64,000 nucleotides of DNA from an uncultured bacterium (GTDB lineage Bacteria > JAGRBM01 > JAHCIT01), in NCBI GenBank assembly GCA_964565925.1, contig CAZMGV010000001.1, positions 430,618 through 494,617 on the forward strand, read 5' to 3'. Every line of letters starts with the position of its first letter. The first letter of the stretch is position 1. Below are positions 18,200-28,206 of this stretch, one piece after another. Position numbers and translations under genes: made by a program. The notes below the pieces were generated by a model that saw only the letters and a program-made list of their open reading frames with translations, did not search any database and had not been told where the DNA came from.

Positions 18200-19508
18200 A
18201 GCGAATCGCCTCCGGTGACCGGACCATATGATTTATGGGGAGCCGGGGGCAAGGGCGGGCGTACCTGACGAAAATCGCAGGTTTAATACTCACCACACCC
18301 CCGGCCGCTTTCGCGGCCTTCCCCCTCTCCGTGACTACGGAGAGGGGGCTGGGGGAGTGGTGCGGTACCCTAAACCCCTGTTGCCGGCAGCGGGTTTAGG
18401 GCTATTCAGTTTTCAAACACCTATCGCGGCATGCGTGGTTTCAGGCCACCGAGCCGCCTTTTCGGTTCCACCACTCGCTTTCCACCGGTCTGCGGGCGCC
18501 TGGTCTGTGCGCACCCCGGCTCGTGGAGCGAGAAGGGGGGTGCGACAGCCGTAGCGGCGCTAAACCGGAAGATCCATCGAATGGCGGGAACCTGCCCTCT
18601 CCGGGGAGACCCGCCCCTGCTCACGTGGTGGACCCACGCGACAGCGGCGCGACCGGGAAGGACTTCACTGGATCCAGGGCCCGCTCATCACGGTCGCCCG
18701 GACCTGAGCTCACTTCCGGCTTCTGAAACGGAACCCTTTCGGGTTCCGTCGTTTACCTCCGGGCCCCTTATCAGGACCATCGGGTTCGTCCGCCGGACGG
18801 AGACTTACCTTCACCCACTATTAATAGCGGCTATAAAAACGCGATCCAGAGCGTGGACCTAAATGGCCCTAAATGAGCCTAAATGAACCCATTTGACCCA
18901 AGTTTTTCAGCGTATTTTGCGAATCTACTGACGCTAGTTAAGACGTTAAATCTGACAACGGAACTCGCGGATCGAACTGAAGAATCTCTGAATCGGGACC
19001 ACCGGGACGGACCCGCAAAAACCGCCAAAATTATTTTCCCATTAACGCGACTTTTAATCTTCAGATTCCGGAATCCCGAGCGGCTCCAGCGGGTTAGCGT
19101 TTTCAGGGCCTTTCACAGCTTGGTCCATTTAGGGCCAAAACGGCGGTTTTATGCGGAAGGAGGGGTTAATATAAATGGCAAGTCGAACTCGCCCCTGCCC
19201 GGACGGAATCCGAAAACCGCTCGTCCTGAGGAGGCTTGCTGTGCAAGCCGTCTCGAAGGACGCGGTTCGAGCCGTTCGACCCTTCGAGACGCTTCGCTCC
19301 TCAGGGCGAACGGCTGTGCGCCCCGGAGCGGCGGGTGAGTCCTGAAACCCCTCCTCCACCTCTCCGTTTGACTTGTCCCGTCAAAAGGCCAATCCTTGCA
19401 GGTGTCCGGTTGCTTATTATCTAGGCTGCACAACCTTTAAGCAATCCGGTTAAATGCCGATGTAACCACGATATTGCCGCGATAAACAGGCAATGAGTCC
19501 GCCCGGAA

Positions 19509-20612
19509 ATGACTACAGAAACGGCAAAAATAACGCAAAACACCCCCTTCCGGATCGGAAAGGTGGAGGTGGCGGGCAATCTCGTGCTCGCCCCCATGTG
19601 CGGCGTGACCGATCTGGCGACGCGGCGGGTGTCCCGCAAGGAGGGCGCGTCGGTCTGCTTTACCGAGATGGTGAGCAGCGTGGCGCTCATGCACGACTCG
19701 AAAAAGACGTTCGACATTCTCCGCACGGCGGCCGACGATTCGCCGCTCGCGGTGCAGGTGTTCGGCGGCGATCCGGAGACTCTCGCCAAAGCGTGCCGGA
19801 TTCTGGAAGGCCTGGGCACGAAGTGGATCGACCTCAACATGGGGTGCCCGGTGCCCAAAGTCGCCAACCACGAGGCGGGCTCCGGCCTGCTGAAAGACCT
19901 GGCGCTCATCGGCCGGATTTTCGGCTCGATGCGGAAAGCGGTGAGCGGCACGTTTACGTGCAAGATCCGCGCGGGCTGGGACGCCAACTCGCTCGTCTTC
20001 ACCGAAGTGGTCCGCATCGCCAATGAAGAAGGGCTCGACGCGCTGGCGTTCCACCCGCGCACCCGCGCCCAGCAGTATACGGGCAAGGCGAACTGGGACT
20101 ATCTGAGGGACGCGCGCAGTATCTCGAAGATTCCGGTCTTCGGCAGCGGTGACCTGTTCTCCCCAACCGACGTGCTCGCCATGAAGAAGCACACGGACGT
20201 GAACGGCTGCTACCTCGCGCGCGGCGCGCAGGGCAATCCGTGGATCTTCCGCCGGGCGGCGGCGCTGCTCAGGGGCGAGCCGGACCCCGGCAGGCCCAAG
20301 GTCGGCGAGATCCGCCAGACAGTGATGGAACATCTGGACGGAAGCTGCTCGCTCTACGGCGAGGACCGGGGCGTGCGGATGTTCAGGAAGCATATCGGCT
20401 GGTACACGAAGGGGCTGCGCAACTCGGCGCAGCTCAGGGCGAAGGCGTTCAATTTCACCCGCCAGACGGACGTGCAGCAGACGCTGACCGAATATTTCGA
20501 TTCGCTCGAAGCGTCGGTTGAGAATCCGTGGTCCGGAACGGCTCGCCAGACAGACGACACTCCGCCAGTAGAAACCCCCGAGGACTGCCTTGCCTATGTC
20601 CAGGAGAGCTAA
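19509..20612 (+). CDS. dusB: tRNA-dihydrouridine synthase B (NifR3 family)
   Basis: VLAPMCGVTD...VCFTEMVSS...DLNMGCP...RAGW are Dus family motifs. Upstream of ntrBC, as in the nifR3-ntrB-ntrC arrangement. Confidence 0.85.
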   Translation: MTTETAKITQNTPFRIGKVEVAGNLVLAPMCGVTDLATRRVSRKEGASVCFTEMVSSVALMHDSKKTFDILRTAADDSPLAVQVFGGDPETLAKACRILEGLGTKWIDLNMGCPVPKVANHEAGSGLLKDLALIGRIFGSMRKAVSGTFTCKIRAGWDANSLVFTEVVRIANEEGLDALAFHPRTRAQQYTGKANWDYLRDARSISKIPVFGSGDLFSPTDVLAMKKHTDVNGCYLARGAQGNPWIFRRAAALLRGEPDPGRPKVGEIRQTVMEHLDGSCSLYGEDRGVRMFRKHIGWYTKGLRNSAQLRAKAFNFTRQTDVQQTLTEYFDSLEASVENPWSGTARQTDDTPPVETPEDCLAYVQES

Positions 20613-27347: not shown

Positions 27348-27586
27348 TCATTCCTCTTGAAAGTTTCGCGGGTCGCCGCAGCGACGAATGGATCGAGGCC
27401 CTTATCCGCCTCGTCCATCTTCGCGTAAACCTCTTTGAGCTTCCTCGCCATCTCCGCATGCTTGAGGTCGCGCAGATACTTCTCGACAGCTTTCGAGACG
27501 AACGCGCTGCGGTTCAGGCCCTCCTTGCGGGCCTGTTTCTCCATCTTGCCAAAGGTTTCGCCGGGTATAGAGACAGCTACTTTCAT
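27341..27586 (-). CDS. mazE: MazE-like antitoxin (ribbon-helix-helix/CopG type)
   Basis: 81 aa. RHH-like N-terminus (MKVAVSIPGETFGKMEKQARKEGLNRSAFVSKAVEKYL). Directly upstream of and overlapping mazF. Confidence 0.65.
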   Translation of the reverse strand: MKVAVSIPGETFGKMEKQARKEGLNRSAFVSKAVEKYLRDLKHAEMARKLKEVYAKMDEADKGLDPFVAAATRETFKRNEW

Positions 27587-27660
27587 ACCGGGAGTATGAC
27601 CCGGGTATGACCATCGGTCAACCGGTAGTCATACCCGGGTACTACCGGAGTATGACCGAG
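27587..27660 (-). promoter_or_regulatory. putative mazEF operator/promoter with GTATGAC repeats and a palindrome
   Basis: Immediately 5' of mazE. Three direct GTATGAC copies plus one inverted copy. Includes the palindrome GGGTATGACC-N15-GGTCATACCC. Confidence 0.45.
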
Positions 27661-27888
27661 GCGGGCTAACTGACGACCCGCAGAAACCGCGCCCGGAAAG
27701 GCTCCCCGTCGCGGGTCATGGCGAGCAGAAAGCCGATAACCGACTCGCACGCCAGCCGGTCGGCGGCGAGTCGGGCCCACTTGAGCTTCTGGGCCTTCTT
27801 CTGTTCGTCCATCGGGAACATGGGGGCAGTTTACCCCGGACCGATCGGGACCCAAAGCGGATTAACGTGACAGATCGGGGATAGCGGG

Positions 27889-28206
27889 TCAGACGAGTTT
27901 AACGGGCTGACCGAGCTTTTTAGACAGCAGGGCTTCCAGGTCGCTCACGAGGTCGCTCCCGCGCTTGTCGCAGAGCCAGCGGCCGTTCTTCTCGCTGTAG
28001 TGCCAGCCGCCGTTGGGTTCGGCGAGCCAGATCTGCGAGACCGCCCGCTGGCGGGAGAGAATGAACTTGGTGCCGTCTTCCATTTCGAGGGCGAGTTTGC
28101 CGTCGCCGGCGTTGAGGTCGATATCCTCGCGGCCAAGACGGTCGACCCGGTCTTCCATCTTGTGGAAGAAGTCGTCGCAGGCGATCAGGAATTCGGACTC
28201 GTTCAT
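27889..28206 (-). CDS. cyaY: iron-sulfur cluster assembly protein CyaY (bacterial frataxin)
   Basis: MNESEFLIACDDFFHKMEDRVD...GGWHYSEKNGRWLCDKRGSDLVSDLEALL aligns along its length with E. coli CyaY. The longer antisense-frame ORF 27889-28908 is rejected. Confidence 0.8.
   Translation of the reverse strand: MNESEFLIACDDFFHKMEDRVDRLGREDIDLNAGDGKLALEMEDGTKFILSRQRAVSQIWLAEPNGGWHYSEKNGRWLCDKRGSDLVSDLEALLSKKLGQPVKLV

Follow-up and report, generated by a model that had tools for sequence, protein, structure and literature searches.

What are the nested helices upstream of dusB in this uncultured bacterium? In the stretch analyzed here (contig CAZMGV010000001.1, 64,000 nt; hereafter the window), three stems lie close together in the spacer ahead of dusB, ntrB and ntrC, overlapped by a small arginine-rich open reading frame (ORF) behind a Shine-Dalgarno-like sequence. 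A first-pass annotation proposed a leader peptide with an attenuator controlling dusB-ntrBC, a small structured RNA, or a repeat resembling a MITE (miniature inverted-repeat transposable element). We conclude that the helices are very probably a solitary, slightly degenerate palindromic repeat similar to REP (repetitive extragenic palindromic), BIME (bacterial interspersed mosaic element) and RIME (Rhizobium-specific intergenic mosaic element) sequences, lying in lineage-specific DNA, and not a regulator of dusB.

All three stems described are present, within 19150-19365, but P1 does not form the 10 perfect pairs described for it. Its arms TCCTGAGGAG (19224-19233) and CTCCTCAGGG (19297-19306) make 9 Watson-Crick pairs and one T.G wobble, and the pairing extends to 17 positions (19217-19233 with 19297-19313, 88% complementary). 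The element is composed as follows:

19155-19216, left outer arm, holding the Shine-Dalgarno-like GGAAGGAGG (19155-19163) and the ATG at 19175; outside the family consensus.
19217-19313, repeat core, matching alike on both strands; one family copy.
19217-19233, P1 5' arm, CCGCTCGTCCTGAGGAG, containing box A, CCTGAGGAG (19225-19233).
19234-19248, P2, GCTTGC (19234-19239), loop TGT, GCAAGC (19243-19248); perfect 6 bp, the family's variable-sequence hairpin.
19249-19291, P3, CGTCTCGAAGG (19249-19259) with CCTTCGAGACG (19281-19291); perfect 11 bp, 21-nt loop with a weak inner hairpin.
19292-19296, P4 remnant, CTTCG, a loop-like pentamer only.
19297-19313, P1 3' arm, CTCCTCAGGGCGAACGG, containing box A', CTCCTCAGG (19297-19305).
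19314-19358, right outer arm, holding AACCCCTCCTCC, the partner of the Shine-Dalgarno-like run.

The core folds at -59.4 kcal/mol, compared to -37.9 +/- 3.7 kcal/mol for dinucleotide shuffles (z = -5.9, 0 out of 500), which upholds the claim that stems of this kind exceed chance. A larger imperfect hairpin of about 205 nt (19155-19358) encloses the three stems. Its two outer arms pair with each other and, taken alone, have a z of -3.1 (2 out of 500 shuffles). In both the minimum free energy and the centroid folds, the purine-rich "Shine-Dalgarno" GGAAGGAGGGGTT is part of this outer stem, paired with AACCCCTCCTCC.

We searched one GTDB genome per species (596 Gb) for the P3 pattern, CGTCTCGAAGG-N12-40-CCTTCGAGACG. 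The pattern occurs in at least 120 stretches; by chance, 22 fixed bases would match about once. Among the matches listed, nearly all hosts are Alphaproteobacteria, with genera including Bradyrhizobium, Bosea, Reyranella, Microvirga, Methylocystis, Sphingopyxis/Sphingobium, Asaia and Parvibaculum; a 'Candidatus Lambdaproteobacteria' metagenome-assembled genome (MAG) is also a carrier. The copies share one layout. The left half reads (CCTCAT)CCTGAGGAG, a small hairpin (P2), CGTCTCGAAGG(ATG) and then a loop of 13-39 nt; the right half reads (CAT)CCTTCGAGACG, a second small hairpin (P4) and CTCCTCAGG(ATGAGG). The outer boxes CCTGAGGAG and CTCCTCAGG, which lie outside the search pattern, are found in 110 out of 128 instances among the matches listed (box A with at most one mismatch). 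Replicons of Methylobacterium, Rhizobium and Sinorhizobium carry a variant of the boxes, GAGGTG / GCCTCGAAGG.

Between the boxes, P2 and P4 are hypervariable, with 86 and 93 distinct versions, respectively, among the matches listed, and lengths of 9-22 nt in nearly all of these copies. At least 4 bp are formed by 93% of the distinct P2 and 92% of the distinct P4 versions, compared to 24-26% of shuffles. In an RNAalifold alignment of listed matches, both sides have changed in 22-53 of the 98 sequences for each P2 pair, and P2 is not the reverse complement of the P4 of the same copy. Since the consensus is its own reverse complement, the unit is an inverted dimer of half units of about 50 nt. 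The whole unit, about 110 nt long and strand-symmetric, folds either as a four-way junction or as two side-by-side hairpins. Isolated half units (CCTCATCCTTCGAGACG, a hairpin, CTCCTCAGGATGAGG) are found at L027:1154-1204, L035:5482-5535 and L021:4495-4614, so the half of about 50 nt, which is a hairpin in its own right, can occur without its partner.

The window copy aligns over the whole family consensus, with boxes A and A' exact, the inner boxes B and B' perfect and a P2 of 15 nt. A hidden Markov model (HMM) trained only on the 97 copies from other genomes recovers 19220-19309 over profile positions 5-110 of 113 (nhmmer, E = 5.2e-12, 44.8 bits). A covariance model scores 61.2 bits on the plus and 61.5 bits on the minus strand (E ~ 5e-15). 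The copy departs from the family at P4, of which 5 nt remain. It is slightly degenerate, having lost the fourth hairpin, and forms a three-way rather than a four-way junction because P4 is reduced to CTTCG. Its closest match among those listed is a copy in an alphaproteobacterial MAG (81% over 80 nt). Two Lambdaproteobacteria copies, also among the nearest listed, share its left flank, GAAAAC...CCG.GTCC. An exact 23-mer spanning P1 and P2 returned zero matches in GTDB genomes, where the source locus itself is unmatched, and a 23-mer from the right arm returned zero in JGI metagenomes.

The family is dispersed within genomes and lies mainly at gene ends. One Reyranella chromosome carries three far-apart copies (at 0.49, 1.71 and 5.70 Mb), several MAGs have matches on two or three contigs, and 891 kb of flanking DNA contain 13 more copies or half-copies, about 1 per 70 kb. 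Copies occupy short intergenic spacers, at a median distance of 31-36 nt from the ORF end. Of 97 copies among the matches listed, 33 lie between convergent, 54 between tandem and 10 between divergent genes, so that spacers holding only promoters are under-represented. Paired copies enclose ordinary genes (GMP synthase, GMC oxidoreductase, a GntR regulator, ABC transport), and none of 9 ORFs checked between or beside such pairs is a transposase. On the viral side, the P3 pattern is present in 19 viral or proviral stretches of IMG/VR (L132-L150), several with 2-3 copies; these may be a vehicle for spread or host DNA included in prophage calls. A Bradyrhizobium contig (L058:3495-4069) has three near-identical copies in a tandem array, spaced 293 and 231 nt apart, which indicates local segmental amplification of the repeat with its flank.

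These data bear on the MITE-like proposal, which was right in kind, as the core belongs to a dispersed palindromic family. Of the many dispersed copies in the genome that were named as the mark of such a repeat, one is seen in the 64 kb of the window. No second copy was found in the window by a 36-mer search allowing 3 mismatches, by blastn at word size 7, by the covariance model or by the HMM, and profile searches found no further copy in about 75 kb of DNA from relatives.

We infer that the family is mobile and that the window copy has no dedicated function. Family elements would most likely spread as DNA, probably with the help of a transposase supplied in trans that recognizes folded single strands, by analogy with REP sequences and their RAYT enzymes. 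Copies would then accumulate in short intergenic spacers, mainly at the 3' ends of genes. The window copy lies where about 1.1 kb of lineage-specific non-coding DNA has its right end, just before a promoter-like block of dusB. If the copy affects dusB-ntrBC at all, it would do so incidentally, for example through a block to read-through from upstream or through an effect of a cruciform on the promoter.

The comparison of the dusB locus with that of relatives places the element outside the conserved upstream DNA. Three further features are needed here:

18262/18349-19367, lineage-specific non-coding DNA of about 1.0-1.1 kb, with its left boundary between 18262 and 18349; the element is its right end.
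19175-19345, plus strand, 56-codon ORF, judged spurious, a frame across the palindrome.
19368-19396, plus strand, promoter-like block, TTGACTT, a 17-nt spacer and AATCCT.

dusB (Pfam PF01207, Dus) starts at 19509, about 160-195 nt past the structure. A PAS/HisKA kinase and a sigma-54 activator (ntrB and ntrC) come next. The nearest relatives, one NCBI MAG and several Logan assemblies, have a DusB 74-82% identical and keep the order of a 93-amino acid gene on the minus strand and dusB-ntrB-ntrC on the plus strand. Conservation of the element upstream of dusB was not borne out: despite the shared synteny, it is absent in the three closest relatives. The spacer between the 93-amino acid gene and dusB measures 1309 nt in the window, compared to 345 nt in relative L001 and 182 nt in relative L003.

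Homology with the DNA upstream of the relatives' dusB resumes only at 19368 (blastn against L001 and MAFFT alignment). TTGACTT is invariant in all 4 aligned sequences, the window and its relatives, and further TGC, GGCTGC and GCAA words are conserved in the block that follows (window 19368-19470; L001 3859-3925; L003; L005). From these sequence patterns, 19368-19396 would be the promoter region of dusB, and the conserved block as a whole probably acts as promoter and operator for dusB-ntrBC. A sigma-54 site in the GGCTGC...GCAA block was considered and is ruled out by the spacing. About 10 nt separate the end of the structured element from the promoter-like block downstream of it. Its position upstream of conserved sequence, in DNA absent from relatives, argues against a leader or attenuator of dusB.

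This brings us to the explanations that compete with a mobile repeat. In the attenuator proposal, the Shine-Dalgarno sequence and ATG would drive translation of the arginine-rich ORF, and the position of the ribosome would set which helices form, thereby controlling dusB-ntrBC. Several features look as this proposal requires. There is a small ORF upstream of dusB, in the orientation of dusB, and it crosses every stem, although it spans 19175-19345 (56 amino acids and a stop) rather than 57 codons ending at 19348. An AGGAGG does precede its ATG, ending 11 nt and not 9 nt before it, and the downstream CCTCCTCC can sequester it. The ORF is nevertheless not a gene, since it lacks a coding signature, a Pfam family and homologues. 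Its GC content at the three codon positions is flat (0.70/0.65/0.63) and lacks the pattern of the genes in the window (0.60-0.71, 0.40-0.49 and 0.85-0.89). The remaining ORFs of the spacer are equally flat and, like the 56-codon ORF, have no Pfam match; a search of 5.8 billion proteins at E <= 10 with the concatenated spacer ORFs in several frames (873 amino acids) was empty. The relatives keep dusB-ntrBC without the element, the ORF lies upstream of the conserved promoter-like block, and the plus strand has no U-tract terminator after the helices. The same sequence is moreover a generic repeat beside unrelated genes in the at least 120 GTDB stretches. The leader-peptide attenuator is therefore largely refuted, and we hold it to be extremely unlikely. 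The ORF is a translation artifact, and both it and the "Shine-Dalgarno" are by-products of the palindrome. The peptide motifs LILRS...RVSKDG and HPSRR...APQDEG, which are common among hypothetical proteins of Alphaproteobacteria, are presumably translated frames of the repeat, and we take the window ORF (...VLRR...AVSKDA...PFETLRSSG) to be the same artifact.

The element could instead work as a structured RNA, as a terminator, an insulator or a barrier to 3' exonucleases between divergent operons, or the whole family could be a functional four-way-junction RNA. In favor of such a role, the fold has a very high stability that chance does not explain, P2 and P4 vary across the family while keeping their structure, and the minus strand has a terminator-like site at 19193-19177. 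The family's location 31-36 nt from gene ends, with enrichment between convergent genes, also resembles that of the REP-type RNA stabilizers and terminators of the literature. The stability does not favor one strand, however. The 291-nt region around the element has a z of -4.07 on the plus strand and of -4.08 on the reverse strand, with 51 GC, 18 AU and 8 GU pairs compared to 49, 17 and 6. Because both strands fold equally, the palindrome is a property of the DNA and gives no strand information. The same is true in the family, where the transcribed strand has no advantage in stability over its complement in 40 tandem cases (mean difference -0.28 +/- 4.1 kcal/mol, P-value = 0.57) and G-U counts are alike (63 versus 55). 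In the window and in 10 loci with canonical family copies, Rfam 15 returned 0 matches at the gathering threshold and, at E <= 10, only chance-level ones (CC1840 at 21 bits, miRNA models). A search for tRNA and tmRNA found none. A hammerhead-like reading of CUGAGGAG...GAA was rejected: these positions are base-paired, the GAAA core is missing and the ribozyme models of Rfam gave no match. The window copy is flanked by neither a promoter-like site nor a U-tract and lies between divergent genes, the rarest context of the family (10 out of 97 among the matches listed), and the nearest relatives lack the element. Perfect palindromes can also be maintained without selection, by template-switch correction. 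We consider a structured RNA improbable, and the dedicated small RNA first suggested for this locus, without Rfam match, strand preference or framing promoter and terminator, was not confirmed.

A third explanation concerns the spacer between the divergent 93-amino acid gene and dusB (18262-19367), which has several features of its own. At 18858-18897, three head-to-tail 10-bp repeats (CCTAAATGGC, CCTAAATGAG and CCTAAATGAA) precede a variant in inverted orientation. Their perfect inverted partner of 12 bp, CATTTAGGGCCA, lies 250 nt downstream (19122-19137), and the array and its partner bracket the most AT-rich part of the spacer (GC 0.45-0.52). By its sequence, the array looks like a series of protein-binding sites. 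Between 18400 and 18860, the predicted fold of the minus strand is better than that of the plus strand (-217.5 versus -189.7 kcal/mol; z = -3.55 versus -1.52), which suggests a possible structured RNA there, with no Rfam match. Perfect hairpins occur at 18321-18348 (CCCCCTCTCCGT-GACT-ACGGAGAGGGGG, 12 bp) and at 18368-18401 (CCCTAAACCC-N14-GGGTTTAGGG, 10 bp), and the left arm of the former resembles 19355-19367 (TCCACCTCTCCGT). Perfect stems of 10 bp or more are few in the 64-kb window, and four of them, counting those of the element, fall in the spacer. Two Logan assemblies (L130 from SRR14271334 and L131 from SRR14271333) encode the identical 93-amino acid protein and match the window over their first 160 nt. 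Position 1 of both corresponds to 18348, exactly where the 12-bp hairpin has its outer edge, and a break at this point suggests a branch of the assembly graph, caused by a repeat or by the boundary of a polymorphic insertion. Elsewhere in the window, the intergenic gap 27428-27889 contains a compound palindrome and direct repeat of GTATGACCCGGGTA units (27594-27659), with 25-nt arms that are 84% complementary and 2 nt apart.

The whole spacer of about 1.1 kb could then be one unit, either the remnant of an integrated or mobile element or a non-coding RNA locus, with the repeat as its terminal hairpin. The absence of the spacer in relatives, its share of the long perfect stems, the iteron-like array of 10-bp period whose inverted partner flanks AT-richer DNA, the better fold of the minus strand at 18400-18860 and the break of two independent assemblies of the same organism at exactly 18348 are all consistent with such a unit. 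Against it, blastn of the 1.3-kb spacer finds no match in plasmids and phages, Rfam, Pfam and protein searches likewise return no similarity, and no second copy was found in the window. Terminal inverted repeats or a target duplication could not be defined, and alphaproteobacterial loci match 19204-19313 only, the one part of the spacer that resembles them. We regard a single unit as rather unlikely, although the spacer could hide a new non-coding locus in its iteron array or in the minus-strand structure of 18400-18860.

A solitary repeat of a dispersed family remains the best account of the helices, and several observations weigh against it. The 64-kb window shows a single copy, and the evidence for repeat behavior comes from other genomes. 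The host is not an alphaproteobacterium: by MnmG and DusB, its best named relatives are at 56-61% (Chrysiogenetes, Thermodesulfobacteriota, 'Deltaproteobacteria') and 44-52% (Bdellovibrionota, Geobacteraceae). We found no target-site duplication, transposase or empty-site allele. The outer arms (z = -3.1) lie outside the repeat family and are unexplained, and the left one has no similarity to alphaproteobacterial loci. The strong conservation of the boxes across distant hosts, together with the structure-preserving variation of P2 and P4, could reflect an RNA function or a protein-binding site. Taken together, a single copy, a deep-branching host outside the Alphaproteobacteria and DNA absent from relatives hint at horizontal arrival. 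The simplest reading is that a solitary, decaying copy arrived with, or inserted into, lineage-specific DNA.

This result removes a false lead. The helices, the Shine-Dalgarno sequence and the arginine-rich ORF are the footprint of a generic repeat and should enter neither models of nitrogen regulation nor small-protein annotation. The family is very common in Alphaproteobacteria and has no Rfam model, and its translated frames probably seed spurious 'hypothetical proteins'. Its four conserved boxes and two hypervariable hairpins are absent from Rfam and from the searchable literature, where the box sequences retrieve only unrelated primers. Invariant boxes together with hairpins that are hypervariable and always palindromic form an unusual combination with no established mechanism. 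There is a small chance that the family represents an undescribed widespread class, either REPIN-like mobile DNA that crosses phyla with an enzyme acting in trans, the present host and the 'Lambdaproteobacteria' MAG being examples, or a four-way-junction nucleic acid with a function in the host.

Among known systems, REP and BIME sequences and the related REPINs are found in E. coli and Pseudomonas and are mobilized by RAYT transposases. Like them, the family is non-coding, extragenic, palindromic and dispersed in many copies, consists of inverted pairs of units that fold into larger hairpins, and is often mistranslated as small ORFs. It also lies near gene ends, with 87 of the 97 copies among the matches listed in convergent or tandem contexts, while the window copy itself is between divergent genes. 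In contrast to them, its units are longer (about 50 nt, or about 110 nt per dimer), its conserved boxes flank hypervariable hairpins, and it has no GTAG tag, CGTC being adjacent to P2 but base-paired. No RAYT or other transposase is found beside copies, in the small sample of 9 ORFs, and the high copy number is seen in other genomes, compared to one copy in the 64-kb window.

The CGTC-REPs are similar in being mainly alphaproteobacterial with occurrences in distant phyla, in forming frequent inverted dimers and in having no dedicated transposase known (PMC3733652). In the family, too, CGTC/GACG directly adjoins the P2 and P4 hairpins. CGTC-REPs have stems of 8-9 bp almost always starting with A/T pairs, loops of 4-5 nt and a CCA tail (PMC3733652), whereas the family's hairpins are GC-rich, variable and 4-7 bp long, with no CCA tail and with CGTC paired within P3. 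Membership of CGTC-REP families 1-4 was rejected, as the element departs from their stem, loop and tail definition, and none of its boxes appears in that paper or its supplements (PMC3733652). Br-REP1 and Br-REP2 of Bradyrhizobium were rejected as well, because their sequences differ.

In size and plan, the element comes closer to other alphaproteobacterial mosaics. RIME1 and RIME2, reportedly described by Osteras et al. in 1995, are said to be 108-109 bp long and 'characterised by two large palindromes'; they are also reported to be absent from Bradyrhizobium, where the present family is common. CIR repeats are said to be defined by an embedded CcrM site (GANTC), which the conserved boxes of the family lack. 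Compared by description only, the family shares with RIMEs and CIRs the size class, the intergenic location, the alphaproteobacterial hosts and the mosaic, inverted-repeat plan. CIRs, reportedly described by Chen & Shapiro in 2003, are about 110 nt long. By size and plan only, RIMEs or CIRs and the present family may be the same or sister families.

With MITEs, the family has in common that it is small, non-coding and dispersed in intergenic regions, with complementary ends and a strong hairpin potential. It differs from them in being an internally nested palindrome and not two terminal inverted repeats around unrelated DNA. No direct duplication flanks the core or the outer arms, the window spacer has no insertion sequence, and we found neither a matching parent insertion sequence nor an empty/filled pair of sites. 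The best Rfam match of the window element, RF01521 (Caulobacter sRNA CC1840), covers 19233-19318 on the minus strand with the full model, at 21.3 bits compared to a gathering threshold of 50 (E = 3.9). The two share short words such as CUCGAAG and CCUCAGG; canonical family copies do not match this model. The window element adds one more member to an established kind of repeat, in a host where it was not expected.

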